This document shows, piece after piece, positions 937-64,000 of a DNA stretch of 64,000 nucleotides. Made by a program: the position numbers and the translations under genes. Below the pieces are notes generated by a model that had not been told where the DNA came from, made no database searches, and worked only from the letters and a program-made list of their open reading frames with translations. Position 1 is the stretch's first letter, and each line of letters starts with the position of its first letter. Source of the DNA: a virus (lineage: Duplodnaviria > Heunggongvirae > Uroviricota > Caudoviricetes); the IMG/VR virus record IMGVR_UViG_3300045971_000195, positions 1 through 64,000 of that record; one strand, given 5' to 3'.

Positions 937-1545
937 TTAGCTAGCATTTGGTCGTTTCGCTACTACATGATCAACTAGGCCGTACGCTAGTGACTCTTGT
1001 GCACTCATGAATGTATCACGGTCCATATCGCGCTCGAACTCTGAATAGGTCTTGCCAGCTGTGTTATGCTTAACATATAGTTCGGTCAAGATGGTCTTCA
1101 TCTTCGTGATCTCTTTATATTGGATCTCGATGTCACTTTGCTTGCCGCCTGCCCCACCAGATGGCTGATGAATCATATGACGTGCAAAAGGCAACATATA
1201 CCGCTTTCCGGGTTCACCTGCTTGCGCAAGGAATGACCCCATTGAACAGGCTTGCCCCATGACGTATGTTGCTACATTAGGAGTAATAAACTGCATTGTA
1301 TCATAAATTGCCATACCGGATGTAATAACGCCACCTGGGCTGTTAATATAAAAATTAATGTCTTTTTCGCTATCTTCGCTTTCCAAGTGAAGAAACTGCG
1401 CAACAATGAGATTAGAACTATGATCATCTACTGGTCCATTTAAGAACACAATCCGTTCTTTTAGAAGCCGACTATAGATGTCATAAGCACGTTCGCCTGT
1501 GCTGCTCTTCTCAACTACCATTGGGATTACGCTATTTTGATTCAT
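937..1545 (-). CDS. clpP: ATP-dependent Clp protease proteolytic subunit ClpP
   Basis: 202 aa; ClpP signature regions (…SPGG…; MIHQPSGG; catalytic Ser in GQACSMGS context). Confidence 0.85.
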
Positions 1546-35497: not shown

Positions 35498-35570
35498 TGG
35501 TGCCTTATGGCAGAATCAAACTGCCGCAATCTGATTACGAAACAGATGTACTGTCACTATACGAAAAAGG
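35498..35570 (-). tRNA. tRNA-Thr(CGT)
   Basis: loop TTCGTAA; T-arm GGCAG-TTTGATT-CTGCC. Confidence 0.5.
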
Positions 35571-35576
35571 CAAATT

Positions 35577-39444: not shown

Positions 39445-39534
39445 TGGTGGATGCGATAGGAGTTGAACCTATACAGTCTTATTTGTACGCGGGTGGGTTA
39501 CAGCCACTTGAGCTCACCAATGCTCGGCACATCC
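39445..39534 (-). tRNA. type II tRNA with GTA anticodon (Tyr-like)
   Basis: 90 nt; loop CTGTAAC; long variable arm. Confidence 0.55.
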
Positions 39535-43477: not shown

Positions 43478-43485
43478 AGGATACT

Positions 43486-48405: not shown

Positions 48406-48408
48406 CAT

Positions 48409-49676: not shown

Positions 49677-50392
49677 AAATTAGAATTTCGTATCACATAG
49701 TTGCACAATACGGTTGGGAGGAGATTACAACTAACTGTATCAACAAAATGAAAAGATCTGGATTGTGGGATGCTGCAACAGAGATTCATATGATGTGTCA
49801 TTACCAGCCATCATTATTTTCAGAATTCACAAAAACTCTTAGTCCTAACGACGATCGTATTTACTGGCACTTGTTTACAAATAGTGTAGTAAAGAGAGGT
49901 GAAAGTTACACAAATAATAGACTAAAAGATATTTGCGATAACGATACTGAAGATTGGAATGTGTTAAGACTGCATAATAAAAGTTCTAACTATACACATC
50001 ATCCTGATCAAGTGCTTGCTTATAAATGGCGAGACCTTATGGAGTATTGGAATATCGAACGATGGGACCTGTTGTGTTCAAAACTTAATCAAGGATTTGA
50101 TGTAGCAGGTAACGAGTGGATGGACGAGCCGTGGCCACATTTTAGCGGTAATGTTTGGTGGGCAAAGAGTAGCTATATTAGAAAGTTACCAGCATTACCA
50201 TTGCCCCTAGATATTAATACTCCTGCAACAATAGATTTAAAAGGACATCCTCCAAGACACGAAGCAGAAGCATGGATGGGAATTGCATCCCCAAAAGCGT
50301 GGTCAGCACTCCCTGAACTAACTACTTGGGGTCACCCAAAAATAGGCGATGGTTGGGATAATCCTAACATCCCGTTTAACGATAAAGAATAA
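49673..50392 (+). CDS. hypothetical Trp-rich protein (239 aa) within glycan cluster
   Basis: ORF, overlapping stops/starts. Confidence 0.45.
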   Translation: MKIRISYHIVAQYGWEEITTNCINKMKRSGLWDAATEIHMMCHYQPSLFSEFTKTLSPNDDRIYWHLFTNSVVKRGESYTNNRLKDICDNDTEDWNVLRLHNKSSNYTHHPDQVLAYKWRDLMEYWNIERWDLLCSKLNQGFDVAGNEWMDEPWPHFSGNVWWAKSSYIRKLPALPLPLDINTPATIDLKGHPPRHEAEAWMGIASPKAWSALPELTTWGHPKIGDGWDNPNIPFNDKE

Positions 50393-51050
50393 TATGAAAA
50401 TTGGAATGGTACACCTATATACTGCAAACTACAAATCTATGGCAGAAATTACGTTACCGGGAAAAGAACAGTATGCAAAAAGACACGGATACACGTTGTT
50501 TAACAAAGATGACAAGTTTATTCCGAATGTTCACATCGGCACACAAAAATGTTACTATATACTCGAGTTAATGGAACAACATCCCGAAATAGAATGGTTC
50601 TGGCATGCCGGTACAGATTGCCTAATTACAAATCATAATATACCATTAGAAAGTTTGATAGATCCCAATCCAACCATACATTTTATTGTATGTAAGGACG
50701 ATCACGGTATTAATGCTGATGTGTTTTTTATTCGTAATTCTCAAGAAGGTAAAGATTATCTTCAACATTTAACAACGCCACATCCTGCATCAGGTACTGA
50801 GCAAGGACATATGTGGGACGACGAACATAATCCAGTGTGGCGTGCAATTACAACATATCTGCCTCAAGTGTATATGAATGCATATGATTTAAAACACTAT
50901 CCTCATAAACGAGGACTCGACGTATTTGGATCTAGGGGAAATTGGAATGTAGGGGATTTCCTTTTACATGCTGTTTCTGGTGCAGTTGCAGATGCATATC
51001 CCTGGAAACTGAACATTCTTAACGAACATATAAACGAAGTACAAAAATGA
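50349..51050 (+). CDS. GT34-like glycosyltransferase, paralog of 43486..44184 (likely start about 50394)
   Basis: 'YAKRHGY' and 'IEWFWHAGTDCLI'. Confidence 0.65.
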   Translation: MVGIILTSRLTIKNNMKIGMVHLYTANYKSMAEITLPGKEQYAKRHGYTLFNKDDKFIPNVHIGTQKCYYILELMEQHPEIEWFWHAGTDCLITNHNIPLESLIDPNPTIHFIVCKDDHGINADVFFIRNSQEGKDYLQHLTTPHPASGTEQGHMWDDEHNPVWRAITTYLPQVYMNAYDLKHYPHKRGLDVFGSRGNWNVGDFLLHAVSGAVADAYPWKLNILNEHINEVQK

Positions 51051-51766
51051 TAAACGATAATTTAATTAAAACTTGCTCATGCAGCAACAACAGTTCATTC
51101 CTTGCGAGCCGAGAAAATGATATAGACTTGTTAGTCTGCACTCATTGCGGCACCCCACATCAATATCTACCAGGTTGGACTCAAGACAAAGTAATCGAGT
51201 ATTATAAAAATCTGTATCATACAGATGCGCAGCAAGCAATTGGACATCAAGCATACAAGGATAGATATGAGCACGATCTTAAAATTGCAAATATTCGATT
51301 AAATTCATATACACATTTAACTCCAGGAATGATCGGGTTGGACATCGGTAGTTCTAATAGTGCGTTTGTACATGCTGCTCGCGCAAGAGGAATTACTTGT
51401 ATAGGTATTGAACCTGGTAAAGATATCGGAGATGATGCTACTACTATTAGACAGCCTATCCAAGAAGTATCATTACCTATTAGCAGTCAAGACTTTATTA
51501 CCATGCACGACAGTTTAGAACATATGGTAGATATCCGTGCTATTGTTGGAAAGATTCAGTCACTACTAAAAATCGGCGGGAACTTAATTGTTGATATCCC
51601 AGACTACTTTGTACCTGAAGGGTTGCATCACTGGCGCCCTGTTCAACATTTATGGTATTGGAACGAGCAGCAAATGATCAACTTACTAAAAGAATTCGGC
51701 CTTACTACTAATAAAGTAATAAGACCGATTCCTGGAAAGATTGTGTTTTACGCTACGTTAGATTAA
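51047..51766 (+). CDS. SAM-dependent methyltransferase with N-terminal zinc ribbon
   Basis: 'CSCSNN…CTHCGTPH' then 'GLDIGSSNSAF' motif I. Confidence 0.55.
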   Translation: MINDNLIKTCSCSNNSSFLASRENDIDLLVCTHCGTPHQYLPGWTQDKVIEYYKNLYHTDAQQAIGHQAYKDRYEHDLKIANIRLNSYTHLTPGMIGLDIGSSNSAFVHAARARGITCIGIEPGKDIGDDATTIRQPIQEVSLPISSQDFITMHDSLEHMVDIRAIVGKIQSLLKIGGNLIVDIPDYFVPEGLHHWRPVQHLWYWNEQQMINLLKEFGLTTNKVIRPIPGKIVFYATLD

Positions 51767-52548
51767 AAGTATTGAATGTTAATTCTAAAAGGATAGTAAA
51801 TTTCATTATTATCCAGCGTTTCGTTTTTTCTAGTTTCAAACCAACTAGTTTTGCCTAACGCAATAGCAATACCGCAAGGGCTGCTTTGATTACCGATAAA
51901 CAATTCTGATCCTGCTATTACGCGAGTCATTTGCAACATATCTTCTGTTTTGTAGTGTGGCACTGTTACTTTGAACAAATCTTCAAACCACGCATGTTCG
52001 TGATCTAATCCGATATATACACAGCGATTTGCAAGTCCAGAATTAAACCAATTCTGCCAAGTTGGATTTAGCGTCGGAGCTCCATCTAAGTAATGCGTAT
52101 TACGTGCAATTACTATAGGGCGATTCGGAACTTTAATAGGATTTTCACACTCTAGCCACGATTGTTGCTGTAGTTGTTCCTTATATAAGTTTGCATCAAT
52201 TCCTTGACTCGATGCATATTGATTTGCAAAGTTGCGTGGTTTAAGTCCACCTGCTTGATGATGTCTGCATACTTCTTCAAATTCGTTAGTTACTTGCTCA
52301 CCGTTCCATTTTTGGAAACTATGAATGTAGCTTTGCGATTTGATTAATGGTTCTAGGACATTGTAGTCTTTCTCAGTCATTCTACCACTATGTATACCAG
52401 CGCCCGGCCATCCTAGTTTTTCTAGGACCATATTATCCATATTATTCATTTTTAGGTAGAAGTCGCCGCCGCCTAAAATTTTTACAATTACTAGACTAGA
52501 TACAACGTCACCTAATGTACCCGAATGTGTAAACGATCTCTGTGTCAT
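51763..52548 (-). CDS. GT9-like glycosyltransferase, paralog of 42677..43477
   Basis: 'HSGTLGDVVSSLVIVK'; 'GNQSSPCGIAIALGK'. Confidence 0.5.
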   Translation of the reverse strand: MTQRSFTHSGTLGDVVSSLVIVKILGGGDFYLKMNNMDNMVLEKLGWPGAGIHSGRMTEKDYNVLEPLIKSQSYIHSFQKWNGEQVTNEFEEVCRHHQAGGLKPRNFANQYASSQGIDANLYKEQLQQQSWLECENPIKVPNRPIVIARNTHYLDGAPTLNPTWQNWFNSGLANRCVYIGLDHEHAWFEDLFKVTVPHYKTEDMLQMTRVIAGSELFIGNQSSPCGIAIALGKTSWFETRKNETLDNNEIYYPFRINIQYF

Positions 52549-52602
52549 AAATTATTCCTTTATGTATATACTAGCATAACGGAACATAAAGATCAATCTT
52601 TA

Positions 52603-53319
52603 TTATAGTTTTTCTGCTATAAACTCTGCTTCAGGGATTCTAGAATGGGTATCTTTGCTACCTAATACTACTACAATACGGCGTCCTACATCAGTATCGA
52701 GCATCATTACAATACATCCTCCGCTTGCGGCAATGTAGCCAGTCTTGCTTACCATAAAAGTATGTCGCTTGCCAATAATGGGATTGGTGTTATTAAACAC
52801 AAACCATTTTTTGCGTATATTAATTTTAATTTGTGGAGTTTTAGCTGCTTTCTGTATTTCAGAATACGATTGTGCTTCTACAACTAGTTTAACTAAATCT
52901 TCAGCAGTGCTTACATTAAACACACTTAATCCAGTTGCTTCGTGATAACGAGTGTTTAACATCCCTAACTTCAATGCTTTTTCGTTCATTGCCTTTACGC
53001 ACTCGTATTCGCCTTTTGGGTAATTACTGCATAGTGCCCTTGCAGACTCGTTGTCCGACTTTACCAATGCAAGTTGTATTAATTCTGCTCGGGTAAACTT
53101 TGTTACACGTTCATCTAACTTTTGATGTGCATCTAACACAACCATTACAGTCATTAGCTTAGTAATACTTGCGATTGCACGAACTTCTTCTATATTTTCA
53201 CTTTGAATTATAGTGCCAGTCCCGTCTGCTACTAACCAGCTTTTAGCTGTAATAGAAGACCAACCGGCATTTGCTGTTGAGTGTAGCAGCAATAATACTA
53301 GCAGAAATTTTCTGATCAT
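52603..53319 (-). CDS. D-alanyl-D-alanine carboxypeptidase (S11 PBP5/6-like)
   Basis: signal peptide; 'SITKLMT' SxxK; 238 aa. Confidence 0.6.
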   Translation of the reverse strand: MIRKFLLVLLLLHSTANAGWSSITAKSWLVADGTGTIIQSENIEEVRAIASITKLMTVMVVLDAHQKLDERVTKFTRAELIQLALVKSDNESARALCSNYPKGEYECVKAMNEKALKLGMLNTRYHEATGLSVFNVSTAEDLVKLVVEAQSYSEIQKAAKTPQIKINIRKKWFVFNNTNPIIGKRHTFMVSKTGYIAASGGCIVMMLDTDVGRRIVVVLGSKDTHSRIPEAEFIAEKL

Positions 53320-53633
53320 AAATCTGATGCATTTGGAAATATTAGTTGAGCTTGTTCACCTGAGCCTAAAATACAAGCTAACCCTTTTTCGTTATACTGA
53401 ATAATTGTCCAAGATTTATTAGTTCTGTTTACTGTAATAATAAATTTTGTATCTAATTGGATGCCATTCCAGAACGGAACTTCTTGATATTTTTCACCAG
53501 TTACTTCTTCGATGATTTGTTTCAACCCCCCGCATACCACAGGTACTTCTGATCGAAATAATTGAGACTGAGATTGGGCGTGGGCTATAAGGGTGGTTAG
53601 CCCGAATAGGACCGCCACTGCTAATTTACGCAT
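53316..53633 (-). CDS. small secreted protein (105 aa)
   Basis: signal peptide 'MRKLAVAVLFGLTTLIAHAQS'. Confidence 0.45.
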   Translation of the reverse strand: MRKLAVAVLFGLTTLIAHAQSQSQLFRSEVPVVCGGLKQIIEEVTGEKYQEVPFWNGIQLDTKFIITVNRTNKSWTIIQYNEKGLACILGSGEQAQLIFPNASDL

Positions 53634-53658
53634 AGTGGCTCTCCTTTTTTAGTATTTA

Positions 53659-55326
53659 TTAACTTGACGAAGGCAATGTTCCGATTGTCGGCTGGCTAGT
53701 TTTAAAGGCAGGCTTAGGTGCAATCTTCGGAGGCATTGTTTTTATGCCTGCATTCTTTTTAATAGTTGCTAATTCATCGGGCGGCTGAACCGCAGCCTGA
53801 GCAGGTTGTTGAACAGCAGGTTGTGCAGGAACCGATGCTTGTTTTTGTTCAATTTTTTCCCAATCTGCTAATTCTTTAAGTAAACTTCCCATTTCGATAA
53901 TATTACGAACAGCAGATGCTTGCATATAAGATCTATATTTTACTAATAGTTCTTTATGCGACCCCATTTCTTTCTTAACTTTTGTTGTAACAGGAAAGCC
54001 GTATATTTCAATAAAATGCATTTTTTCACTATTACCGCGTTTTACAACTAACTGATAATCGTTTAGTGCTTCTTTTAGAGGTGCTCCAAATGTTAATTCA
54101 CTAAATGCTTTCTTCGATGACGGTGTAAGAATAACCATTTCAACATTTTCTTCGTTGCGGGTTGCATGATGTAAAATACCGTCGTATACTTGTTTAACAA
54201 GCCCAATTTGATCAGTTTTTGCCATCCTAGCTAACGAACGTTCTATTTCATCATATGCTACTGTAAATCCGTTGAAATAATTTTCATCACGGACAGCTTC
54301 AACATCTGCTTTCTTCTCAGCTCGTGTCATTTTTTCTGTACTAGGAGCAGCGAACTTTTTCTGTACAGCAGGACTTAAACTCATGCCAACACTTTGTTGA
54401 AAGAATCCGTTTAGCGCATCAAATGCATATCCGCTAACCTGTCCGAACTGGCCGACTCGCCCTGCTTTAATGCTCAGTAGGTTAAAACTTTGTTTACCCT
54501 GTTCATTTGCAACTGATATTTTTAAATCAACTTTTGTAATTTTTTGTTGTTCTGCGTTACCGCCGTCACTTAACACATCTACTAAATTTTCTGTTGGATC
54601 ATCAGATGCTTTGCTCACAGCTAATTGAACACGTTTTGATGTGTTTACATAATCTACAGCACTAGCAATATGTTGTGTAATGCCTTTTATTGTGTCTGAT
54701 GGAATTTTATAGTCTGCTACAGACTTCTTCCCCATTCCTAAGTAAGCAAAGAATGCTTTCTTATCGATAAATGGAACACTTGCACTAAATGTGATGTTGT
54801 CTTTGCCGGAGTGTGTTTGTACAGTGCCCTTACCTTCTGCTAACCTTTTAGCCATTCCAATTACATCATCTTTACTAACAGGCTGTCCTTGCTTTTCGAA
54901 CTTTGTAGTAACTGCACATCCTAAAACTAATTCTGCAATGTTTCCTAAATTTGGTTTTAACTCGCCTTTTATCTTTTCATCTTTAAAAATTTGATTTAGC
55001 TTAACATTATTATAAATTTCGCCTTCAACTGGATTGCCATCGTCATCTAACCGTTGAACACTAAAAGTAATTGACTGCAACATTTTAGGATCTTTATGTG
55101 CAATAGCAGCTAGAAATTCGTTTGCAACTTTTTGTCCATTTTGTATAATACCATCGAAATTTTCACTATCAATACTAAACGAGTAAACATTATTTTCAGG
55201 CAACCCTTCAATAAACGGTTTCCAATAGTAATCTTTTACCCAGTCGTTTGATGATCCGCTGTACTTCATCAATCCTTCGACAATCGTGCTTTTAAATGGT
55301 GTTAGTAAAAATTCAGTTGCTCTCAT
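53659..55326 (-). CDS. hypothetical protein (555 aa) with Pro/Ala/Gln-rich C-terminal tail
   Basis: long ORF; C-terminal 'QPAVQQPAQAAVQPP'. Confidence 0.55.
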   Translation of the reverse strand: MRATEFLLTPFKSTIVEGLMKYSGSSNDWVKDYYWKPFIEGLPENNVYSFSIDSENFDGIIQNGQKVANEFLAAIAHKDPKMLQSITFSVQRLDDDGNPVEGEIYNNVKLNQIFKDEKIKGELKPNLGNIAELVLGCAVTTKFEKQGQPVSKDDVIGMAKRLAEGKGTVQTHSGKDNITFSASVPFIDKKAFFAYLGMGKKSVADYKIPSDTIKGITQHIASAVDYVNTSKRVQLAVSKASDDPTENLVDVLSDGGNAEQQKITKVDLKISVANEQGKQSFNLLSIKAGRVGQFGQVSGYAFDALNGFFQQSVGMSLSPAVQKKFAAPSTEKMTRAEKKADVEAVRDENYFNGFTVAYDEIERSLARMAKTDQIGLVKQVYDGILHHATRNEENVEMVILTPSSKKAFSELTFGAPLKEALNDYQLVVKRGNSEKMHFIEIYGFPVTTKVKKEMGSHKELLVKYRSYMQASAVRNIIEMGSLLKELADWEKIEQKQASVPAQPAVQQPAQAAVQPPDELATIKKNAGIKTMPPKIAPKPAFKTSQPTIGTLPSSS

Positions 55327-55334
55327 AGTGTTAT

Positions 55335-56006
55335 TTACCCTATTTCAGGAAACAGCACTTCTTCGATAAAATCCTTAACTAACGCTTTACTTAACCCTAA
55401 ACTTTCCATTACACGAGGGCTATGTGGATTTTGCTTCTGATAGTGGCAATAGCGATTCTGTGCCATATGAAAATCAGCACCACTTTGTTGTGTTAACCCT
55501 ACATTAGATAGGTAGTAATCTAAGTTATCGAGTCCTGCTTGAACAAACTGATTTAGCTCATCTACTTTATCTACCGCGCCCACTGCAATCATTGCAGGAC
55601 TAAAGATTGCCGCCGCCCAGTCAGGCAATTCTCGTGGCTTTTTCCAGTTTAATTCTGTTACACGTTGATCAAACCATTGCATCATGTAATGATTTGGGTC
55701 ACCTGCATTACTAAAATCGTGGAATCCGCCACTCATCCTGTTTGGCCCACACACCATATCAAATCCGAATATAGGACTATTATCGTTCGTATGCGGGAAA
55801 ATGCATACATGCATCATCCATAAGTTTTTAGTTTGTCGAGCATCTACAATATCAATGTGTGCTCTACGGTATGCCATACTATAGTACACATGATTAGCCC
55901 AAGGAAACTTGCTAGCCGCAGGCTCAGTTACATGCTCTCCAGTGGATTTGAATCGCTTGATAATTTCTTCAGAGCAAGCAATTGCTTTTTCAAATATAAT
56001 GCTCAT
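55335..56006 (-). CDS. ferredoxin-dependent bilin reductase (PcyA/PebS/PcyX family)
   Basis: 'WKKPRELPDWAAAIFS' and 'QNRYCHYQKQNPHSPRVMESLG' parallel PcyA blocks. Confidence 0.75.
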   Translation of the reverse strand: MSIIFEKAIACSEEIIKRFKSTGEHVTEPAASKFPWANHVYYSMAYRRAHIDIVDARQTKNLWMMHVCIFPHTNDNSPIFGFDMVCGPNRMSGGFHDFSNAGDPNHYMMQWFDQRVTELNWKKPRELPDWAAAIFSPAMIAVGAVDKVDELNQFVQAGLDNLDYYLSNVGLTQQSGADFHMAQNRYCHYQKQNPHSPRVMESLGLSKALVKDFIEEVLFPEIG

Positions 56007-56551
56007 TCTTCAACTGGAAGTGGAAGAGCTGCATCGTATTCCTTCATAATACGGATACCCCAGTCAAACGCAATATTAGCTTCATCAGCCATGCTGTCAT
56101 TTAACTTATTACGGATAGTTACTTTAAGTTTTTCAACATCATCAAAATCAAGATTACGATGTGGGAACGGGAGAAGTTTGCGAATAATTTGGCCACCGTG
56201 CAAATCACCCATGTGCCACACATAAAGATGTGCCATAATTTTATCCGGCTGTCCTACTAGATCTAGTATGTAGCGACAATAATCGATGGTAACTTTATTA
56301 ATTTTCGGAAAGTTGCCATTGCACATTTCTTTTGCGTCGAGATAAAGATTTACAGCACGTTCAACTTCTAAGCAATCAAGTGTTAGCTTTTCGTATCGTG
56401 CGACATTTTCAATTGAATCATAAAACACTGATTTTTGATAAGTGTAATCTGCCCAGACTTCATGAGTCATACGACCCTTAATTGCAGCTCGCATAAAGTT
56501 AGTGCGTTCTGCTTCTGTGTGCTTATCTTTAGTTAAATCTTTTAAACTCAT
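56003..56551 (-). CDS. heme oxygenase
   Basis: 'LKDLTKDKHTEAERTNFMRAAIKGRMT' (proximal His helix) and 'AHLYVWHMGDLHGGQIIRK' match HO-1 blocks. Confidence 0.8.
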   Translation of the reverse strand: MSLKDLTKDKHTEAERTNFMRAAIKGRMTHEVWADYTYQKSVFYDSIENVARYEKLTLDCLEVERAVNLYLDAKEMCNGNFPKINKVTIDYCRYILDLVGQPDKIMAHLYVWHMGDLHGGQIIRKLLPFPHRNLDFDDVEKLKVTIRNKLNDSMADEANIAFDWGIRIMKEYDAALPLPVEE

Positions 56552-56880
56552 TCTGTTTCTACTTTAATTAATAGTGGATGCCCATATTGACGAGCAAGGC
56601 CAGTAGCCTCGACACCCTTCTGCTCTGCGATTTCAAAAGGATAAATTCCTGCAACTGCATAACCATCATTATGAATTTTCATAGTTAAGTCCAGTGCAAT
56701 ACTTTCAGAATGTCGAAACACCTTAATTAACATTGCCACTACAAAATCAACTGGAGTCTTGTCATCGTTATACACAACAACTTTATATTTGCTAGGTTCC
56801 TGAATTTTAATTTTATTAGTAGCGCGGGTTTTAGTAATCGTTTCTGACATTGTAATTCCTATTATGTGTGTATTTAACAA
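56548..56880 (-). CDS. clpS: ClpS-like Clp protease adaptor
   Basis: 'YKVVVYNDDKTPVDFVVAMLIKVF' ClpS core. Confidence 0.7.
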   Translation of the reverse strand: MLNTHIIGITMSETITKTRATNKIKIQEPSKYKVVVYNDDKTPVDFVVAMLIKVFRHSESIALDLTMKIHNDGYAVAGIYPFEIAEQKGVEATGLARQYGHPLLIKVETE

Positions 56881-56904
56881 AGTGGGGGTCTCCCCCCACT
56901 TATT

Positions 56905-57405
56905 TTAAGTAGATTTAATTGAGATCTTTTTAGGTTTCTTTTCTTCGGGGATGTTGCGTATTAAGTTGATAAGCAGTAAGCCATCTCGTATTTCAGCATC
57001 CCCGACTTCCAGAAACCCTTCCAGTCTAAAGAATCTTTCAAAGTTCCGAGCACTTAACCCTCTATGCATGTATTCACCTGTAGGGTGCTCGGTTGCTTTT
57101 GTGCCAGTTACAATCAAATGATTGTTTTGTACAGTTAGCTCAATCTCATCTTTGCGGAAACCCGCGACTGCGATTTGAATCTCGTAATTATCCTCATCAT
57201 GTTTAATGACATTATGTGGAGGGTAGTTATTTTGGATTTGGTTAGCAAATCGTGATTCGAAATCGTTAATGATTTGATCAAAACCTACAAGGGCTCTGTT
57301 TAGAGAGGTGGTATCGAAACGTACTAATTGATTCATAGTTTTCTCCTTTATTAAGCAAGAATCATATTGGGCACCATTGCCCGGTTTTTGTAGAACCCGA
57401 AGCAT
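56905..57405 (-). CDS. Hsp20/alpha-crystallin small heat-shock protein
   Basis: 'YEIQIAVAGFRKDEIELTVQNNHLIVTG' ACD pattern. Confidence 0.7.
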   Translation of the reverse strand: MLRVLQKPGNGAQYDSCLIKEKTMNQLVRFDTTSLNRALVGFDQIINDFESRFANQIQNNYPPHNVIKHDEDNYEIQIAVAGFRKDEIELTVQNNHLIVTGTKATEHPTGEYMHRGLSARNFERFFRLEGFLEVGDAEIRDGLLLINLIRNIPEEKKPKKISIKST

Positions 57406-57418
57406 TCTACTATTTTAT

Positions 57419-57910
57419 TTATCCCTGAAAGATCTCATCTAGCCAAATTTTGCATTCTGGCCATTGTTTGTAAATGTGCGATCTGCCGCCTGCATCACGC
57501 CATTCAATACAGTTACTTGTTCTATCGTCAATCAAAATATCGCCGGGTTTACAGTGTCGATATTTGTCATGGCTAAAAGGCCCAAAAAATACAGGAATTC
57601 CTTCAAAGTGCTTGTGTGCCCACCAAACTTTGTCTTGTGCTGCAAACGGTACAGAATAGTCATGCGGTAGTGCTGATAGGAATGCTAAGTTGTCTGCTTT
57701 ACCGTTTGCTACTTGATCCCGACAGTATTGCACAAGTTCTGTAGCACCGGGTTTTAGATCAAGTTTTGAATAGAATCGATGATCATTCTTTAGTCGAGCC
57801 CAATCGTAGTTAGGAATGCGTTCAACATTGCCCCACTTCATACCTAAGTAATCTTGGGCATGCGTGATCCAATCTGCAACCACATCGTCCATATCTAAGT
57901 AAATATCCAT
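57419..57910 (-). CDS. 5'(3')-deoxyribonucleotidase-like HAD hydrolase
   Basis: 'IYLDMDDVVADW' (DxDx[TV] plus ADW). Confidence 0.55.
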   Translation of the reverse strand: MDIYLDMDDVVADWITHAQDYLGMKWGNVERIPNYDWARLKNDHRFYSKLDLKPGATELVQYCRDQVANGKADNLAFLSALPHDYSVPFAAQDKVWWAHKHFEGIPVFFGPFSHDKYRHCKPGDILIDDRTSNCIEWRDAGGRSHIYKQWPECKIWLDEIFQG

Positions 57911-57917
57911 TTTGTTC

Positions 57918-58187
57918 CTAAGTTGACCATTTCAATATAAACAGTATAACATCTTTTTCGTTACTTAGCAACCAGTTGCTACCCAACCCTTGTATTTTCC
58001 CCCCACAGTGCTTATCTGCCCATTCTTTAATATCAACCCGCGAATAGTGATCTGCCGATTTACATTGTATCCACCCTTGTTCGCATAACATTCGAGTCAT
58101 AATTTCAAAGTCGATTTCTTTTCGGATCTCGTCTGCTAACATATCGGAAAGTTCTTTAGATATTGACTTTGACATTATTAGCTCCAC
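57918..58187 (-). CDS. F-x-L-R-W family small protein (array member 1)
   Basis: 89 aa; C-terminal 'ILFILKWST'. Confidence 0.5.
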   Translation of the reverse strand: MELIMSKSISKELSDMLADEIRKEIDFEIMTRMLCEQGWIQCKSADHYSRVDIKEWADKHCGGKIQGLGSNWLLSNEKDVILFILKWST

Positions 58188-58402
58188 AGCAATGCGAACA
58201 TTGTTTTAGTTGCGTCATCGACATACGAATCGTGTATCTCTGCCTGCCACTGTATCTTTTGATTATCTGGAGTAACTGATACCCACATAGACCAACCTTC
58301 GCCGCGATACATGCCACCTGATTGGCGCTGCGGCGGCCCTACATTTGATGCGAGCCAGTTTGCAATAGAATCTACTTTGCCGGAATTAATTTTTATCTTC
58401 AC
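58178..58402 (-). CDS. F-x-L-R-W family small protein (array member 2)
   Basis: 74 aa; 'ANWLASNVGP…TMFALLWS'. Confidence 0.5.
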   Translation of the reverse strand: MKIKINSGKVDSIANWLASNVGPPQRQSGGMYRGEGWSMWVSVTPDNQKIQWQAEIHDSYVDDATKTMFALLWS

Positions 58403-58686
58403 GTTCTTGCCAATTCTAATAATATTTTGTATTGTTCGTATGCCTTCATTACTGTGGTGTTGTTCTTCCTAACAATAGTGTCTGCTTCTATTTCGTACAA
58501 CGTAGTAGCAAGCTCTGTAAACTTTTGGCCATCCATTGTCATTTCAACAGTTGAACCTCTAAACACCTTTGTCGGATAACTACCCATAACTTCAACATTA
58601 ACAGTATCATACTTAACTTCAAGTCGTTGCGGATAGTAAGTTTGTTGAAAACTTCTATAAACTTCTTCGTTCACGGAGTACTCCAT
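58399..58686 (-). CDS. hypothetical small protein within array (95 aa, family motif not evident)
   Basis: ORF with 4-nt overlap to neighbour. Confidence 0.4.
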   Translation of the reverse strand: MEYSVNEEVYRSFQQTYYPQRLEVKYDTVNVEVMGSYPTKVFRGSTVEMTMDGQKFTELATTLYEIEADTIVRKNNTTVMKAYEQYKILLELART

Positions 58687-58916
58687 CGCAACACGAACAT
58701 TGTAGCATCTTTTGGATTTTTAAAAAAGAATGTTGGGTCCTTTTGAATCCAGCCGCATTTCCAACGGCCTTTGCTATTACTTTTGCCAAAAGTATCTTCG
58801 CACCATTGTCGTTGCTCCGGTACCTTTCCAACATGCAGCAGGCCACCGGTAATCGCTACTTTTATTTTATACTTGCTTCGACGTGTTGTGTGTTTTAGCA
58901 TAATCATACTCCCCAC
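58671..58916 (-). CDS. F-x-L-R-W family small protein (array member 3)
   Basis: 'RQWCEDTFG…ATMFVLRWSTP'. Confidence 0.55.
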   Translation of the reverse strand: MGSMIMLKHTTRRSKYKIKVAITGGLLHVGKVPEQRQWCEDTFGKSNSKGRWKCGWIQKDPTFFFKNPKDATMFVLRWSTP

Positions 58917-59317
58917 CTTAGTAAAAACATTAGATAATCTTTCTCATCGCGGAAATGAATACTTGATTCGTATCTGTGCCACCAACGACTCCAAGCATCT
59001 GGACGTTTATCATGTTTTCCAAATTGTTTTGCACACCATTCATCTACTTCATCATAGAAGGTTGCATCAAACTCTGCTATGTACCATTTAGCACGGCTGA
59101 ATTTGTACTTCTTGTGGAACTTAACAATGTTAGGATCCTGTGTTGTCATTTTTTGCGTGAATATTAATCCTGCAGAAAGCGGCATAGGCTGTACGCCTAT
59201 AATTTGTTGTGCAATCAACGATGGCATCATTTTTGTTATCATCGGCAGTATTACGTTTTTCATTTTTGTTTCAATATAAAAAATGTTAAGTATTTTTCGG
59301 GAATATCTAACTCCCAT
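58904..59317 (-). CDS. F-x-L-R-W family protein (array member 4, 137 aa)
   Basis: 'DEWCAKQFG…YLMFLLRWGV'. Confidence 0.55.
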   Translation of the reverse strand: MGVRYSRKILNIFYIETKMKNVILPMITKMMPSLIAQQIIGVQPMPLSAGLIFTQKMTTQDPNIVKFHKKYKFSRAKWYIAEFDATFYDEVDEWCAKQFGKHDKRPDAWSRWWHRYESSIHFRDEKDYLMFLLRWGV

Positions 59318-59463
59318 TTAATATTAGGAACCGGAACAACTGACATTGCCTCTACTATCTCAAGACACTTTAGTTTATCAATATCGTATTCAACACACAT
59401 CTTGATTAAATTTATTGCTGTCATACACGGCAACGGATCTAAATCTACTATCATTTCCCCCAC
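59260..59463 (-). CDS. possible degenerate array member (67 aa)
   Basis: 'KYLTFFILKQK' C-terminus; overlaps neighbour substantially. Confidence 0.3.
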   Translation of the reverse strand: MGEMIVDLDPLPCMTAINLIKMCVEYDIDKLKCLEIVEAMSVVPVPNIKWELDIPEKYLTFFILKQK

Positions 59464-59723
59464 CTTATTAAAAACATTGTCTTATCGCTTGCTTTAACAA
59501 AATACATCCATCCTGGATATCCATTTCCCCTATACCATGTATCTGTTGCGAACGTTTGCTCACACCACTTGCTCATTGCTAAAATCTCTGCATCGTAATA
59601 ATTGATTAGAGATGCACGATGTGGCATAACTACCCGATTCACTCCGTAATCTACAACAAGCGAATCTTTTGGGATTACTTTTATCTTCCGTTTCTTCTTG
59701 GGCTTTTTCATTTGCCGGCCCAT
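59451..59723 (-). CDS. F-x-L-R-W family small protein (array member 5)
   Basis: 'SKWCEQTFA…KTMFLIRWGK'. Confidence 0.55.
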   Translation of the reverse strand: MGRQMKKPKKKRKIKVIPKDSLVVDYGVNRVVMPHRASLINYYDAEILAMSKWCEQTFATDTWYRGNGYPGWMYFVKASDKTMFLIRWGK

Positions 59724-59920
59724 CGTAGTAGAAACATCAAATGATCCTTTTCGCTATAAAAATAAATTCTTCCGATCCTAACAAACCATCTTCCTGCACT
59801 TACTGGACCTAAATTGTCCGTTAGCCAAGTTACTAACTCTTTTGGTACACCCACTGACTGGTTTAATTCTACAATATGGTATTCGTGATTTACTTTAATT
59901 TCCATTATTATTTCCCCCAC
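59708..59920 (-). CDS. F-x-L-R-W family small protein (array member 6)
   Basis: 'VTWLTDNLGP…HLMFLLRWAGK'. Confidence 0.55.
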   Translation of the reverse strand: MGEIIMEIKVNHEYHIVELNQSVGVPKELVTWLTDNLGPVSAGRWFVRIGRIYFYSEKDHLMFLLRWAGK

Positions 59921-60162
59921 CTTAATAAAAAGAGTGTTAAATCTTGCTTGTCTCTAAATCGTATTTCACCCCACATTATATCATCTTTCCACCGTGGACG
60001 AGATGTATCAACTACTAATCCTGGAGCTCCGTATATTTCCTTGCACCATGTCCGCATGTCGTCCCGTTTCGCGTTCTCTGCCCTTAGTGCAGCGCCCCAA
60101 GCATTAAAGGCAGCTACCCAATAACCGAATTCAGTAAATTCTTGATATACATGAAATTTCAC
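59908..60162 (-). CDS. F-x-L-R-W family small protein (array member 7)
   Basis: 'RTWCKEIYG…LTLFLLRWGK'. Confidence 0.55.
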   Translation of the reverse strand: MKFHVYQEFTEFGYWVAAFNAWGAALRAENAKRDDMRTWCKEIYGAPGLVVDTSRPRWKDDIMWGEIRFRDKQDLTLFLLRWGK

Positions 60163-60386
60163 AAGTGTCCAAACTTTAAAGCAAACACAAGGGCGGGACG
60201 TTCGTTTTCAAACTGAAAGATTGTCCCGCCACCTTGCAGCCATTGCACATAGTATCTGTCAAAATCGCTTGCTTCGCTTATATTTGTACTGCACCAATTA
60301 AACATTGCATCAGTACTATCTTTAACTTTCACTTTATGGCGGAAATTAGGATTAGACATGCCGCCCTCGCTATGATATCTTTTCAT
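60159..60386 (-). CDS. F-x-L-R-W family small protein (array member 8)
   Basis: 'FNWCSTNIS…ALVFALKFGHL'. Confidence 0.5.
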   Translation of the reverse strand: MKRYHSEGGMSNPNFRHKVKVKDSTDAMFNWCSTNISEASDFDRYYVQWLQGGGTIFQFENERPALVFALKFGHL

Positions 60387-60628
60387 CGCTTTATAATATA
60401 ATTGCTATACTGTAATATAAACATACTTGCATGCTTTTCAGTGTAAAATGAAAATACTGTGTGTCTTATTGTAAAGTCAAACGTATCGTTTTCATACCTC
60501 TCTGATATTCCCCCGGGGTTGAAACTAAAATCAAAGTCCACTCCTTGTACCATTCCTTGCTTTCGCAAAGACTGAACAATATCAGTTACTTCATTAGCTT
60601 TCTTCTTCCATAGCTTAACTTCGATCAT
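60383..60628 (-). CDS. F-x-L-R-W family small protein (array member 9, divergent)
   Basis: 'KHASMFILQYSN'. Confidence 0.45.
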   Translation of the reverse strand: MIEVKLWKKKANEVTDIVQSLRKQGMVQGVDFDFSFNPGGISERYENDTFDFTIRHTVFSFYTEKHASMFILQYSNYIIKR

Positions 60629-60839
60629 CTACATGTAATTCTCTTAAATTAGGATGACTGCCCCATCGTAGTAAAAACAGTGCTACATCTTTTTCTTCTG
60701 CAAAGTAGAACCCGTTATGACCTGCATCCCATCGTTTACCGATATTACCAAACTGGTCTCGTGCCCATTCGAAGTATTCGTTCTCCAACGGAGCAATACT
60801 CGTATCTCTAATAAAAAATTTAAAATCCATTAAACTCAC
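60615..60839 (-). CDS. F-x-L-R-W family small protein (array member 10)
   Basis: 'FEWARDQFG…VALFLLRWGSHP'. Confidence 0.55.
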   Translation of the reverse strand: MSLMDFKFFIRDTSIAPLENEYFEWARDQFGNIGKRWDAGHNGFYFAEEKDVALFLLRWGSHPNLRELHVDDRS

Positions 60840-61068
60840 TCCACCTTAATACAAACATCGACAAGTGCTTTGCTTCTTTAAACGCATAGGTTGTATTTCC
60901 AAACATACTATGCATAACCCAAATCTTGCCGTCCATACCTTCCCAAGTTTTTGGAGTTGCATAAGACCAACCGCCTAATCCAATATTTTCATGACACCAT
61001 TTTTCCATTGCTGGATGCTGATGATAGCGTTCTTTGCCAAATGTAATCCAGCTTGCTGTATTGTTCAT
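60820..61068 (-). CDS. F-x-L-R-W family small protein (array member 11)
   Basis: 'EKWCHENIG…LSMFVLRWSEF'. Confidence 0.55.
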   Translation of the reverse strand: MNNTASWITFGKERYHQHPAMEKWCHENIGLGGWSYATPKTWEGMDGKIWVMHSMFGNTTYAFKEAKHLSMFVLRWSEFNGF

Positions 61069-61460
61069 GAATATTTCAATGCTATTAACACAGCATCCTT
61101 ATCATTGTTAGTTCCTACAAACACCTGGTCACCTCCACTAAACTCATTAAAGTGAAAGCATCCGTCCCAGCGATTCTTTTCGCCTCTTGCAAAGTGATAC
61201 ACTGTGCAATTATCTAAGTCTCGTCGAGGGTACATATACTGTTGAAAGTCTTTATTAGGTACCCAACCATGCGGTTCGTTGTGATCAAATATTTTGGTAG
61301 ACACAGGAAGTATATACTTAAAGTTCATAAACATATTTTCAATTGTATTAGCACGGCGAACAATATTTTCTTCTTGCCACTTACGCCAATCTCGTTCTTG
61401 CTTTGATAAGCCAGTTCGCCATGTAAGCCACTTGTCTTTTATGTACGCTTTCATGCCCAC
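61065..61460 (-). CDS. F-x-L-R-W-related protein (array member 12, 131 aa, divergent)
   Basis: 'DKDAVLIALKYS' C-terminus. Confidence 0.45.
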   Translation of the reverse strand: MGMKAYIKDKWLTWRTGLSKQERDWRKWQEENIVRRANTIENMFMNFKYILPVSTKIFDHNEPHGWVPNKDFQQYMYPRRDLDNCTVYHFARGEKNRWDGCFHFNEFSGGDQVFVGTNNDKDAVLIALKYS

Positions 61461-61729
61461 CTCAATATAAACATAGTACGATCTGCTTCATTTCGAAACC
61501 AAAATCGTTGGTCATTCATATACCAACGTTGACATCCTTCGTCCCAACAGCTTGCAGGTTCTCCAAATATTTTAGTTGTCCACTTCTCCATCTCTTGCCA
61601 GTTCGCAAACACTGGCCTTACAACAAAATACTTTGCACCGTGCAACCGCTTTTCTTCTATATACATTTTCGATTCCGGAATGTAAGGGCAATATATCGAA
61701 GCATGCAATGTTGTTAGTACCCTGACCAT
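61451..61729 (-). CDS. F-x-L-R-W family small protein (array member 13)
   Basis: 'EKWTTKIFG…RTMFILRWA'. Confidence 0.55.
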   Translation of the reverse strand: MVRVLTTLHASIYCPYIPESKMYIEEKRLHGAKYFVVRPVFANWQEMEKWTTKIFGEPASCWDEGCQRWYMNDQRFWFRNEADRTMFILRWA

Positions 61730-62028
61730 GCTAGTGCCAACATAGAATAAAGTTTTTCATGAACATCAAACTTATTAGCATCCACTGGCCAATTGGTACT
61801 CGGATGTTCATACCAAAGTTCTTTAGATTGATTTCGAATCCAATAGCCTGCTTGCGACGATACTAATACAGTATACCACATTGAACCATCTACTACTGCT
61901 TTATCAATCATTGTAATCTTTCTAGTTAGTATATTCCGCGCATGTACATAGTACATGCTCTTTCCAGTATGCCGTGCGGAATATACTATAGGCATCTCGC
62001 TGTTTTCTATCGACACAACTTCTTTCAT
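61714..62028 (-). CDS. hypothetical protein (104 aa)
   Basis: ORF overlapping array start. Confidence 0.4.
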   Translation of the reverse strand: MKEVVSIENSEMPIVYSARHTGKSMYYVHARNILTRKITMIDKAVVDGSMWYTVLVSSQAGYWIRNQSKELWYEHPSTNWPVDANKFDVHEKLYSMLALAWSGY

Positions 62029-62861
62029 ACTTCAAAGTAGAATGCAGGGTCGAAGATCGTTGCTTGAAACTCATGTCCTGCATAACCACGAGGGTTACTC
62101 ATCACATGCGTATCGCCAATCATGTAATCAACTGGATCATGCATGTGTCCGTGAACCCATGCTTGAATCTGCGGATGATCCATAATGAACTCGGTTAAAT
62201 TACTATGATAACCAAAATTCATATGGAAGTCCCGACCGTCTTGATAATGCGGAGCAATACTCAACGGGCTAGGTGCATGATGACTAATAACAACAACCTT
62301 ATCGTTTTCGTGACAGTCCAAAAACAACTTTAACGATTCTACAGTCTCTTTGAATACACCTGCAACATAAGCAGGAGTGAACTTGTTTGTATAGTATGAG
62401 TCACCGTAAGGCAACTGAATCTTAATACTATCGCCGTGCTTGATTGAAGAGAAATCGTACATACTTTGCTCAACAACTTGCATAGTCAGCGGATCACGCT
62501 TGTTCATATCAGTCCAGAACGTTCCCCCGAAGAAATGCACATCCTCGATCTGCATACTTTCTGCTTCGAGGATACGGACGTTATCGGGCATTTCACGCTT
62601 TAAGCGTGCCGGAGTATCTTGGTAACTATTGCTGTAATGTTCATGATTACCCAAAACGTAAATTACCTGTTCGTACTTAATGAATTCTTCGTTGATAAAA
62701 CGACGATACCGATCTGCAAGGAACGTGTCCTTTTTAGTATTATCTGCAAGACGTAAGTGCCCTGCTTCCATAATATCACCCGCAGCGATAAGGACATCTC
62801 CGCCAGGAAGAATCAGATCTTCAAAATTCAAATGCACATCGGAAATCAAATTAATTTTCAT
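62025..62861 (-). CDS. calcineurin-like metallophosphoesterase (278 aa)
   Basis: 'ISDVHLN', 'GDIME', 'GNHEHY', 'GHMHD' motifs; consensus promoter immediately upstream. Confidence 0.7.
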   Translation of the reverse strand: MKINLISDVHLNFEDLILPGGDVLIAAGDIMEAGHLRLADNTKKDTFLADRYRRFINEEFIKYEQVIYVLGNHEHYSNSYQDTPARLKREMPDNVRILEAESMQIEDVHFFGGTFWTDMNKRDPLTMQVVEQSMYDFSSIKHGDSIKIQLPYGDSYYTNKFTPAYVAGVFKETVESLKLFLDCHENDKVVVISHHAPSPLSIAPHYQDGRDFHMNFGYHSNLTEFIMDHPQIQAWVHGHMHDPVDYMIGDTHVMSNPRGYAGHEFQATIFDPAFYFEV

Positions 62862-62885
62862 GGCTATCCTTAAAAATATTACTCT

Positions 62886-62922
62886 CTTAATACAATTATA
62901 ACAGGTATTACCTAATCTGTCA
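62886..62922 (-). promoter_or_regulatory. sigma70-type promoter TTGACA-N17-TATAAT
   Basis: minus-strand reading CTTGACAGATTAGGTAATACCTGTTATAAT. Confidence 0.65.
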
Positions 62923-63430
62923 AGTCTAATCTGTAGTTAGAAGCGAGCAAAGCTCACTTGAGATGTCGCTTATCGCTCATCTCTTTTATAGAGAGAAGAT
63001 ATATTATCCAGATTCTGGAGTCAGATTTTGCCCTTTTTACGGGCAAAAAAAATGAAATTATCCGAGTTCCTTTCATCGGTAGCATGTGGCGTGTATAGAG
63101 GCGGTCATCCGGTACCTCGAGCCATGATCTTATATATGACGGCGGACTGTACATGCAAGCTACCACATATACAGCCGTGGGAGTACTACTCCCTCATTTA
63201 GCCTTTGGTGAAACATATTCAAACAGCAAAATCGGTTGTACGTAGGCGTATCCGATCATCATCCTTGCGGGTAGTTGCTAAGTACTTTTTTTGACCAAAA
63301 AGAATTTACTGTCCCCGTGACCCTAGGTCCGGTTATCATAGGCACACGGAATAAGCCTGTGCAAGCATCATGTCATAGTTGTTTATTATATAACAAATCT
63401 TAAAGTACATGTTTGGTTAAATACATATAT

Positions 63431-64000
63431 TATGCTCAAACCAAAAACACAAGACGCAATTTCAGCCAGCTTAGAAAAACTTAAAACAGACGGAAACTAT
63501 CGTGTGTTCACAGATATCCTAAGAGAACGTGGAAAGTTCCCTAACGCAATTTACTATGGACGTTACAATATTAAACACATTACTAATTGGTGTTCAAACG
63601 ACTACTTAGGTATGGGACAACACAAAGTAGTGCTCGATGCTATGCATACCGCTTTGGATCATGCCGGTGCCGGCGCCGGGGGGACACGCAACATTTCCGG
63701 AACAACTCACTATCATGTTGCACTAGAAAGCGAACTTGCGAAATTACACGATAAAACATGTGCTTTGACCTTTACAAGTGGCTATGTTGCTAACCAGTCA
63801 ACTCTGTCGGTTTTAGGTCTTTTATTGCCTAATGTCCACTATATTTCAGACGAAAACAATCATAATTCGATGATTGTAGGCATTAGATCTAGTAAAGCAC
63901 CTAGAACAGTGTGGCGTCACAATGATCTCAAACATTTAAAAGAAATCCTAGAAAGCTTAGACCCCGCTTGCCAACCCATAATTGCAATGGAGGGAGTGTA
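63431..64000 (+). CDS. hemA: 5-aminolevulinate synthase (ALAS/HemA-type), 5' partial (runs off window)
   Basis: hand translation: '…WCSNDYLGMGQH…GAGAGGTRNISGTTHYH…FTSGYVANQ…DENNHNSMI' close to ALAS consensus; not in ORF track because no stop in window. Confidence 0.8.

Follow-up and report, generated by a model that had tools for sequence, protein, structure and literature searches.

The 64,000 nucleotides analyzed here, positions 1 to 64,000 of the IMG/VR virus record IMGVR_UViG_3300045971_000195 (hereafter the window), encode a compact heme oxygenase (hemO), an overlapping ferredoxin-dependent bilin reductase (FDBR) and, in divergent orientation, a 5-aminolevulinate synthase (ALAS; gene valaS). 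In terms of gene identities and pathway, these genes very probably form an auxiliary metabolic gene set for tetrapyrrole metabolism of the broken-cassette type. Observed directly are the identities of the genes, their catalytic residues, the fold, the way in which the genes are arranged, and how far related phages keep them. The combination of phage heme oxygenase, bilin reductase, and ALAS has already been published, and the window is a further example of it. New beyond the two earlier studies (Chen et al. 2020; Wegner et al. 2024) is a conserved hsp20-clpS-hemO-FDBR module, for which we found no earlier description.

The heme oxygenase, bilin reductase, and 5-aminolevulinate synthase genes

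The three genes are positioned in the window as follows.

55335..56006, minus strand: PcyX-lineage ferredoxin-dependent bilin reductase (223 aa), assigned by PF05996, fold, and tree
56003..56551, minus strand: hemO, compact heme oxygenase (182 aa), assigned by PF01126 and HO-1-type motifs
63432..64000, plus strand: valaS, 5-aminolevulinate synthase (TIGR01821), N-terminal 189 of 403 codons, the window end cutting the gene

The hemO product was matched by the Pfam profile PF01126 at 54.6 bits (cutoff 23), its closest solved structures are HO-2 and HO-1, and no NCBIfam model matched it. The proximal heme-ligand histidine is H11 (KDKHTEAE), which aligns with the proximal His of HO-2, and the distal-helix motif GDLHGGQ pairs with GDLSGGQ of HO-1/2. 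Both the proximal His and the Gly-rich motif are kept across phage HemOs, the variant in the vHemO of the freshwater phage CB_2 being GYMYGGQ. An earlier note on this DNA had assigned an HO-1-type heme oxygenase to 56003..56551, and the PF01126 score, the matches to solved heme oxygenases, and the presence of the peptide blocks it had quoted bear this out. The overlap of the heme oxygenase and reductase frames that it described is likewise present, with the same coordinates on the minus strand, and measures 4 bases. More specifically, both ends of hemO share the four bases ATGA with a neighbor, the start with the clpS stop and the stop with the FDBR start. The protein is 30% identical to the active, 175-aa CB_2 vHemO and 34-41% identical to HemOs of Grosse Fuchskuhle phages. 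By analogy with the short CB_2 enzyme, which gives biliverdin IX-alpha (PMC11480375), the product of 56003..56551 is predicted to turn heme into biliverdin IX-alpha.

The reductase was matched by Pfam PF05996 (Fe_bilin_red) at 66.4 bits (cutoff 31). Among solved structures it scored 173 bits with PcyX_EBK42635 (5OWG) vs approximately 54 bits with cyanobacterial PcyA, and PebS was not matched at E<=1 in this search. It also fell below the NCBIfam PcyA equivalog NF002760 (84.3 bits vs a cutoff of 206). An AlphaFold model built with 24 homologs reached a pLDDT of 91.6 and a pTM of 0.90, and a Foldseek search with this model returned 5OWG first (TM 0.88, target-normalised) and PcyA structures next, all 46 matches at E<=0.001 being FDBR or RCCR. 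The model shows the alpha/beta/alpha sandwich expected for the family. Over 148 core columns, identity amounts to 43-45% with PcyX, 26-30% with PcyA, and 19% with PebS. Residues D52, H66, and D83 align with Asp55, His69, and Asp86 of PcyX, and an Asp stands where PcyA has Glu76. A neighbour-joining tree of the same 148 columns, with references from Supplementary Data 6 of Wegner et al. 2024, places the enzyme inside PcyX sensu lato with 99% bootstrap. Within that group it forms its own clade with two Grosse Fuchskuhle lake phage sequences (54-65% support), and the PcyA* sequences of CB_2 and Bradyrhizobium, which are 32-35% identical to it, form a separate clade (90%). The gene had been described as a PcyA/PebS-type bilin reductase in need of placement among PcyA, PebS, and PcyX; the peptide blocks cited for it are present, its FDBR identity is confirmed, and by scores, fold, and tree it is PcyX-like. 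An identity as PebS, PebA, or PebB was ruled out by NCBIfam scores, solved-structure matches, and core identities.

The valaS gene starts with the ATG at 63432, and its 189-residue fragment in the window scored 242 bits with TIGR01821 vs 117 with BioF. Like the Pfam scores of hemO and the reductase, this lies well beyond chance. The full gene was taken from Logan contig L002, found by exact-protein look-up, which is 100% identical to window positions 52025-64000 and extends 8.9 kb further; on this contig valaS occupies 8219-9430 on the minus strand. The complete vAlaS of 403 aa scored 535.8 bits with TIGR01821 (cutoff 338.55), and both sister models stayed below their own cutoffs (Kbl 304 vs 460; BioF 300 vs 426). 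The earlier note had proposed an ALAS-type frame at the window edge, to be completed by contig extension and to be given up if the full-length protein proved to be, for example, BioF or Kbl. Its ALAS identity holds at full length, and only its start at 63431 was one base out of frame. An identity of the edge frame as BioF, Kbl, or SPT is thus ruled out by the full-length scores.

The top five solved-structure matches of vAlaS are all ALAS, the best being the bacterial enzymes 7x98 and 2bwn. Like Rhodobacter capsulatus ALAS (2BWN), to which it aligns over the full length at 407 bits, vAlaS keeps the pyridoxal phosphate lysine (K250 in GTLAKGFG; RcA K248) and the substrate residues, with equivalents of Arg21, Asn54, Thr83, Asn85, His142, Asp214, and His217 for glycine/succinyl-CoA binding. 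Unlike it, the window enzyme is phage-encoded, overlaps a downstream DUF454 gene, and has lost both heme-regulatory residues, with a Lys in place of RcA His342 and no equivalent of Cys400. Viral AlaS proteins are typically without these heme feedback residues (Wegner et al. 2024, PMC11480375). Compared with the active CB_2 vAlaS, 91 of 112 N-terminal residues are identical (approximately 81%), only those 112 being legible in the published alignment. A tblastn search of a collection of deposited phages recovered no true ALAS, the matches being BioF/Kbl-like (<=37% identity) or bacterial contamination.

Published cassettes and the hsp20-clpS-hemO-FDBR module

Genes for ho1, a pcyX-like reductase, and ALAS were reported in large freshwater phages by Chen et al. 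2020 (bioRxiv 10.1101/2020.02.13.942896), and hemO, pcyA/X, and valaS were described in aquatic phages, including a 'broken cassette' layout, by Wegner et al. 2024 (PMC11480375). In the latter study, CB_2 vAlaS rescued an E. coli 5-aminolevulinate (ALA) auxotroph, CB_2 PcyA/X gave phycocyanobilin (PCB), and marine PcyX gave phycoerythrobilin (PEB). The 69 contigs of that study are nearly all marine with 31-38% G+C, and its three freshwater entries (179-527 kb, 37.5-41.7% G+C) are all broken cassettes. The window has a G+C content of 39.8%. Therefore, on the basis of the three shared genes, the G+C content, and the CB_2-like vAlaS, the window belongs to the known broken-cassette class.

The likeness to the published broken cassettes extends to the overlap of hemO and FDBR with a valaS start 6.9 kb from the hemO start, to a vAlaS lacking His342 and Cys400, and to a large phage of approximately 40% G+C, as for CB_2 and two Grosse Fuchskuhle uncultivated virus genomes. 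The window differs in that its hemO-FDBR pair ends a conserved hsp20-clpS-hemO-FDBR module, in that its FDBR is Asp-type and of another clade whereas that of CB_2 is a Glu-type PcyA*, and in that its rIIB points to jumbo phages of the XacN1/Xoo-sp13 type whereas the marine contigs are pelagiphage-like. Marine PcyX (5OWG and the homolog in phage Mosig) is what the reductase matches best in sequence and fold. The two have in common the equivalents of Asp55/His69/Asp86, a gene that overlaps the 3' end of a short hemO, and membership in an effectively phage-restricted type. However, it is only 40-45% identical to these proteins and lies in a sister clade, its habitat is apparently freshwater, and its neighbors are hsp20 and clpS, whereas the Mosig reductase neighbors 2OG-Fe(II) oxygenases and ferrochelatase. 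PcyA of cyanobacteria and cyanophages, together with PcyA* of Bradyrhizobium ORS278 and CB_2, resembles the window enzyme in fold, the His/Asp catalytic pair, and four-electron biliverdin chemistry, but these proteins are 26-35% identical to it, have Glu76 where it has Asp, and form separate clades; the window enzyme also stays under the NCBIfam PcyA cutoff.

The window proteins were further used to search 80 related IMG/VR loci with flanks of up to 10 kb. An ALAS gene occurs within the flank examined in 11 of the 80, in two layouts. In seven loci it lies directly upstream of FDBR, with 53-57% identity and no heme oxygenase homolog at the search threshold; these loci probably represent the marine type of cassette. 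The other four (L007, L009, L010, and L041) have it in divergent orientation, 2.5-9 kb away, and 81-85% identical, as in the window. The view that adding ALAS to the pair is more unusual therefore stands insofar as this is the less common state (11/80), but the combination had already been published in 2020 and 2024.

The features that matter for the larger gene arrangement are listed below.

56905..57405, minus strand: hsp20, small heat-shock protein that opens the module (PF00011, 65.4 bits)
56548..56850, minus strand: clpS, N-degron adaptor of ClpAP (100 aa, counted from the ATG at 56850; PF02617, 89 bits)
62895..62923, minus strand: perfect sigma-70 consensus, TTGACA-17-TATAAT with an extended -10 TG, the sole 12/12 match in 12 kb
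937..1545, minus strand: ClpP protease subunit, a possible ClpS partner (PF00574, 257 bits), unlinked and 55 kb off

Across the related loci, hemO lies directly upstream of FDBR in 68/80, ClpS homologs sit at a fixed offset directly upstream of hemO in 34/80, and HSP20 homologs at a fixed offset upstream of clpS in 33/80. Upstream sequence of 1.5 kb or more is available for 70 of the loci, and 33 of these have the hsp20-clpS pair. The median gap is 45 bp between hsp20 and clpS and 7 bp between clpS and hemO, the latter often replaced by an ATGA overlap, and hemO and FDBR overlap by approximately 20 bp. In the window, the spacer between hsp20 and clpS holds a G+C-rich hairpin (56880..56901). 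As such, the two-gene operon claimed in the earlier note is correct in that hemO and FDBR are coupled, but the operon is bigger, with clpS coupled as well and hsp20 preceding. The clpS product exceeded the PF02617 cutoff of 23 bits and did not reach the NCBIfam equivalog cutoffs. The N-degron pocket of E. coli ClpS, which we take to consist of N34, D35, D36, T38, and H66, is kept as NDD..T..H in the window and in 34/34 module copies, with D36 changed to N in six.

Presence of the module varies with the residue at the Asp55 position of the reductase. Over the 70 loci, the module accompanies Glu in 21/28, Ser in 6/6, Cys, Asn, or Gln in 3/3, and Asp in 3/33, so the window, with Asp plus module, shows a minority combination. 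The occurrence of D, E, S, N, Q, or C at this position, strongly correlated with the module, suggests that the bilins or roles may differ between phage lineages. ClpS, Hsp20, and DUF454 are not mentioned in the text or supplements of Wegner et al. 2024 (PMC11480375), Hsp20 is mentioned only in another context by Chen et al. 2020, and no paper pairing ClpS with a bilin reductase was found in the literature searched.

A metallophosphoesterase gene (62025..62861, minus strand) starts 34 bp downstream of the sigma-70 consensus at 62895..62923. From this gene through position 52603, all genes are co-directional with short or negative gaps, in the order metallophosphoesterase, about a dozen small open reading frames (ORFs), 5'-nucleotidase, hsp20, hairpin, clpS-hemO-FDBR, and more genes. 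It is possible that the consensus serves as promoter of a string reaching hsp20-clpS-hemO-FDBR. As promoter-like counts overall are not above the shuffled expectation, we only infer such an operon. The distant ClpP subunit may conceivably be associated with the clpS module.

The DUF454 (YbaN-like) membrane-protein gene lies at L002:7804-8232 on the minus strand and overlaps the valaS 3' end. DUF454 homologs occur in 23/80 of the related loci, including L062, L064, L065, and L066, and in four loci without detectable hemO the DUF454 gene overlaps the FDBR start (in L064, 9588-10004 and 9992-10669). These overlaps with valaS or FDBR therefore amount to a repeated linkage to phage tetrapyrrole genes. 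A DUF454 gene is induced under iron starvation in Avibacterium (PMC7970244).

A full-length Polynucleobacter-1 RNA (RF01718; 87.5 bits vs 37) lies at 63221-63367 on the minus strand, within the 570 bp that separate valaS from the divergent metallophosphoesterase gene. The 5' end of the RNA is 65 bp from the start codon of valaS, which is on the opposite strand. The listing for this motif reads 'Burkholderiales, fresh water/estuary'. As a conserved regulator of the system it was rejected, since it is absent at the gathering threshold in seven related loci, and we regard it as incidental.

Proposed pathway and competing explanations

From these genes we infer what the enzymes do, which bilin isomer they yield, where the electrons come from, and how the phage profits. 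The vAlaS, transcribed divergently from the plus strand, would feed ALA into the host heme pathway, and because its heme-feedback residues are absent it would escape end-product inhibition. The minus-strand gene string would end in hsp20 followed by translationally coupled clpS-hemO-FDBR. HemO would open heme to biliverdin IX-alpha, iron, and CO, and the PcyX-like reductase, supplied by host ferredoxin, would carry out a four-electron reduction of biliverdin. Its predicted product is PEB via 15,16-dihydrobiliverdin. This single-residue prediction is made because the PcyX-specific Asp55 equivalent is kept, a criterion that follows Wegner et al. 2024, who put the formation of PCB by CB_2 PcyA down to its missing Asp55 (PMC11480375). 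The phage might benefit from the heme supply, from the release of iron, and/or from the bilin.

Several points weigh against this pathway as drawn. The clade of the characterized marine PcyX and Mosig, which also holds GROS_542/546/794, excludes the window enzyme with 92% bootstrap, and the activity of the freshwater FDBR subclade is a prediction for an enzyme 43-45% identical to the characterized PcyX core. The Asp55 position is highly variable in the nearest relatives, and the isomer prediction therefore hangs on one residue. CB_2, the sole freshwater phage FDBR assayed so far, is a PcyA yielding PCB (PMC11480375). The 73 kb covered yielded neither a ferredoxin nor a protein that binds bilin, and the making (vAlaS) and destroying (HemO) of heme in one cell is left unexplained, also by the authors of that study.

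Some of these points favor a possible alternative, namely that the reductase is not a PEB-forming PcyX and works as a PcyA, converting biliverdin to phycocyanobilin, or makes another bilin. Apart from the true PcyA of CB_2 and the position of the window enzyme outside the characterized PcyX clade, the module-bearing relatives mostly have Glu, the PcyA state, or Ser at the Asp55 position, and by query-normalised TM the predicted fold fits PcyA about as well as PcyX (0.83 vs 0.72). Nevertheless, the window enzyme itself has Asp, not Glu, at this position, scores 173 bits with PcyX vs 54 with PcyA, fails the PcyA equivalog (84 vs 206), and is only 32-35% identical to the PcyA* of CB_2 and Bradyrhizobium, which stand in their own clade (90%). 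The residue diagnostic of PEB or PCB is not fixed in the freshwater branch, and predicting products from homology is therefore unsafe there. If the variation among D, E, S, N, Q, and C is product-determining, several different bilins would come from one clade.

The place of clpS and hsp20 next to the predicted heme-to-bilin genes could be read in another way, which we hold to be unlikely. clpS-hemO-FDBR and hsp20 may act as a single unit in which N-degron proteolysis is tied to the breakdown of heme. Phage ClpS would redirect ClpAP, made up of host ClpA and a ClpP from either host or phage, to hemoproteins of the host or to its C5-pathway enzyme glutamyl-tRNA reductase (GluTR), HemO and FDBR would dispose of the released heme and free iron, and vAlaS would act as a feedback-insensitive ALA bypass. 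The four-gene order and spacing kept in 33/70 assessable loci, the coupling of clpS, hemO, and FDBR, the pocket conserved in 34/34 ClpS copies, and the phage-encoded ClpP are consistent with such a unit. In plants, ClpS1/ClpF bind the GluTR N-terminus and induce proteolysis, and the turnover of bacterial GluTR is stated to be analogous (PMC6597238); the lack of any ClpS/bilin reductase link in the literature searched would make the unit new. However, many jumbo phages and cyanophages have ClpS and Hsp20 but neither hemO nor FDBR, loci with classic Asp-type PcyX mostly go without the module (3/33 have it), and most module-bearing loci have no ALAS within the flank examined. We set its probability low because gene adjacency is the only evidence. 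It is equally doubtful that proteolysis, heme cleavage, and iron release make up one N-degron device, with vAlaS replacing host ALA synthesis, in a clade making several bilins. If true, this device would be an undescribed means by which a virus takes control of tetrapyrrole flux by acting on the stability of proteins. The purpose of converting heme to bilins in phages of non-photosynthetic hosts has been called 'enigmatic' (Wegner et al., PMC11480375), and the hsp20-clpS-hemO-FDBR linkage offers a new lead on why such phages degrade heme to bilins.

Still less probable is a role of the bilin as a light-sensing chromophore in the infected cell, whereby the phage would build a photoreceptor and not salvage iron. 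With the product of CB_2 PcyA, a functional phytochrome forms in vitro, and globins that bind bilins have been put forward as partners (PMC11480375). The window, in turn, encodes a BLUF domain and a response-regulator receiver, suggesting that light signalling matters to this phage. BLUF, however, binds flavin and not bilin, lies 25 kb away, and is linked in 0/80 related loci, and no GAF, PHY, or phycobiliprotein-like gene appears in annotations covering most of the window and the 8.9 kb beyond. The low probability given to this role follows from the fact that no bilin-binding protein was found.

Finally, a host origin of ALAS or of the whole gene set, joined by misassembly or at a prophage border, is effectively refuted: ALAS does lie at the window edge, on the opposite strand and past a 570-bp non-coding gap, but its junction is identical in the 76-kb JGI contig and the Logan assembly of SRR35489142, the G+C content fits phage, ALAS genes of 81-85% identity occupy the same position in related viral contigs, and the FDBR type occurs in only 5 of 185,579 species genomes, all of them contigs of metagenome-assembled genomes (MAGs). 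In addition, the overlapping DUF454 gene, a 3'-5' exonuclease-like gene, rIIB, an HNH endonuclease gene, and others follow 3' of valaS beyond the window, and valaS is therefore embedded in phage DNA and not at a host junction. The gene junctions recur in these independent assemblies; coverage from a second Logan run, SRR35489129, is likewise independent but confined to hemO-FDBR. In the annotation of the 76-kb JGI/IMG contig, ALAS and heme oxygenase are named and the reductase is a 'hypothetical protein'. The source samples are IMG 3300045747 and the two runs SRR35489142 and SRR35489129.

Phage lineage and neighboring genes

The database holds 1,543 homologs of the reductase, many of them on contigs of 190-370 kb, and the best 120 are all at least 52% identical and closer than marine PcyX. 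Judged from these sequences, the reductase clade is apparently a large freshwater jumbo-phage sister clade of marine PcyX, which would give the PcyX lineage a very large freshwater branch. Pelagibacter phage Mosig (40%) is the only cultured phage with a homologous reductase, and since a megablast search of 11 kb against 50,697 GenBank phages gave no match, the phage has no close cultured relative. Its rIIB is closest to those of jumbo myophages (Xanthomonas phages Xoo-sp13, 56%, and XacN1, 51%; also Ralstonia, Stenotrophomonas, and Pseudomonas phages), and ClpS recurs in jumbo phages of the XacN1/Xoo-sp13 kind. The phage is thus likely to be a freshwater jumbo myophage with a beta- or gammaproteobacterial host. 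Alphaproteobacteria, which had been mentioned in connection with ALAS, cannot serve as a host call given these nearest relatives of rIIB. In the scan of one genome per species (185,579), the five MAG contigs with the FDBR type belong to five unrelated phyla; the FDBR lineage is therefore effectively phage-restricted and uninformative on the host. The tetrapyrrole genes would accordingly be placed in an XacN1/Xoo-sp13-related, tRNA-rich, GOLLD-carrying phage type. The hosts of this type probably rely on the C5 pathway, and in such hosts a viral Shemin enzyme would be a true bypass.

ARAGORN predicted 44 tRNA genes for all 20 amino acids, including two tRNA-Glu(UUC), between 12374 and 39623 on the minus strand, and Rfam adds about three further tRNA-like matches (28140-28211, 35501-35571, and 39448-39534). 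Such a very large tRNA set is typical of XacN1-like jumbo phages. A full-length GOLLD RNA (RF02032; 26051-26479, minus strand; 196.6 bits vs a gathering score of 150) lies among the tRNA genes in a 4-kb stretch (24354-28526) almost without protein genes. The tRNA/GOLLD region is flanked by a DUF2828/DUF7788 protein gene (22936-24354, minus strand; 163 bits) and a homolog of T4 RNA ligase 1 (28526-29440, minus strand).

Two further genes of possible relevance to heme or light were considered and rejected as members of the system, neither being linked to FDBR in any of the 80 loci. The first is the following.

22235..22627, minus strand: hemerythrin-domain protein (130 aa, public gene call from an internal ATG; PF01814)

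The longer frame 22235..22669 scored 29.4 bits with PF01814 (cutoff 25.3), all NCBIfam scores were below cutoff, and HxxxE, HxxxH, and HxxxxD motifs are visible by eye in its translation. The hemerythrin-like protein of the earlier note thus has a Pfam domain match, but the gene lies 33 kb off, with no homolog within 10 kb of FDBR in the related loci (0/80), and is therefore outside the heme/bilin system. The second is the gene for the BLUF blue-light sensor (30413-30769, 71 bits), which is followed by a receiver gene (31723-32124, 73 bits) and a gene with a weak dual-specificity phosphatase match (32154-32654), all on the minus strand. The three could form a phage light/signalling set, and none of them shows linkage to FDBR in the related loci (BLUF 0/80).

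Downstream of FDBR by 8 bp lies the gene for a 555-aa protein with a Pro/Ala/Gln-rich tail (53659-55326, minus strand), which is kept in this position in 4/80 related loci. Neither Pfam nor PDB gave a match for the protein, its one match being PHROG 3560 (unknown function); no support was found for its IMG name, 'dihydroneopterin aldolase'. Next come a gene for a small protein with a signal peptide (53316-53633) and one for a secreted D-Ala-D-Ala carboxypeptidase (52603-53319). Upstream of hsp20, at least nine small ORFs of 64-137 aa are arrayed in tandem (57918-61729, minus strand) and share a C-terminal motif of approximately MF(L/I/V)LRW(G/S/A). They constitute a paralogous family, of which two members checked had no Pfam or PHROG match, and in one member (58904-59317) an N-terminal stretch resembles the first ~60 residues of the T4 Gp23 major capsid protein (37 bits).

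Elsewhere in the window, a gene for endonuclease V (55-456) adjoins clpP, and PTPS/QueD lies just past the window start. A flagellin-like protein is encoded at 15487-16308 on the minus strand (Flagellin_N 79.6 bits, Flagellin_C 54.5 bits), with a Band_7/SPFH protein nearby (17702-18682). Between 40789 and 51766 there are 14 sugar-nucleotide and glycosyltransferase genes, of which those in the approximately 9 kb from 42677 to 51766 are on the plus strand, opposite to the rest. This block includes dTDP-sugar epimerases and an isomerase, a DegT aminotransferase, E1-dehydrogenase-like subunits, GT17, GT34, and a methyltransferase.

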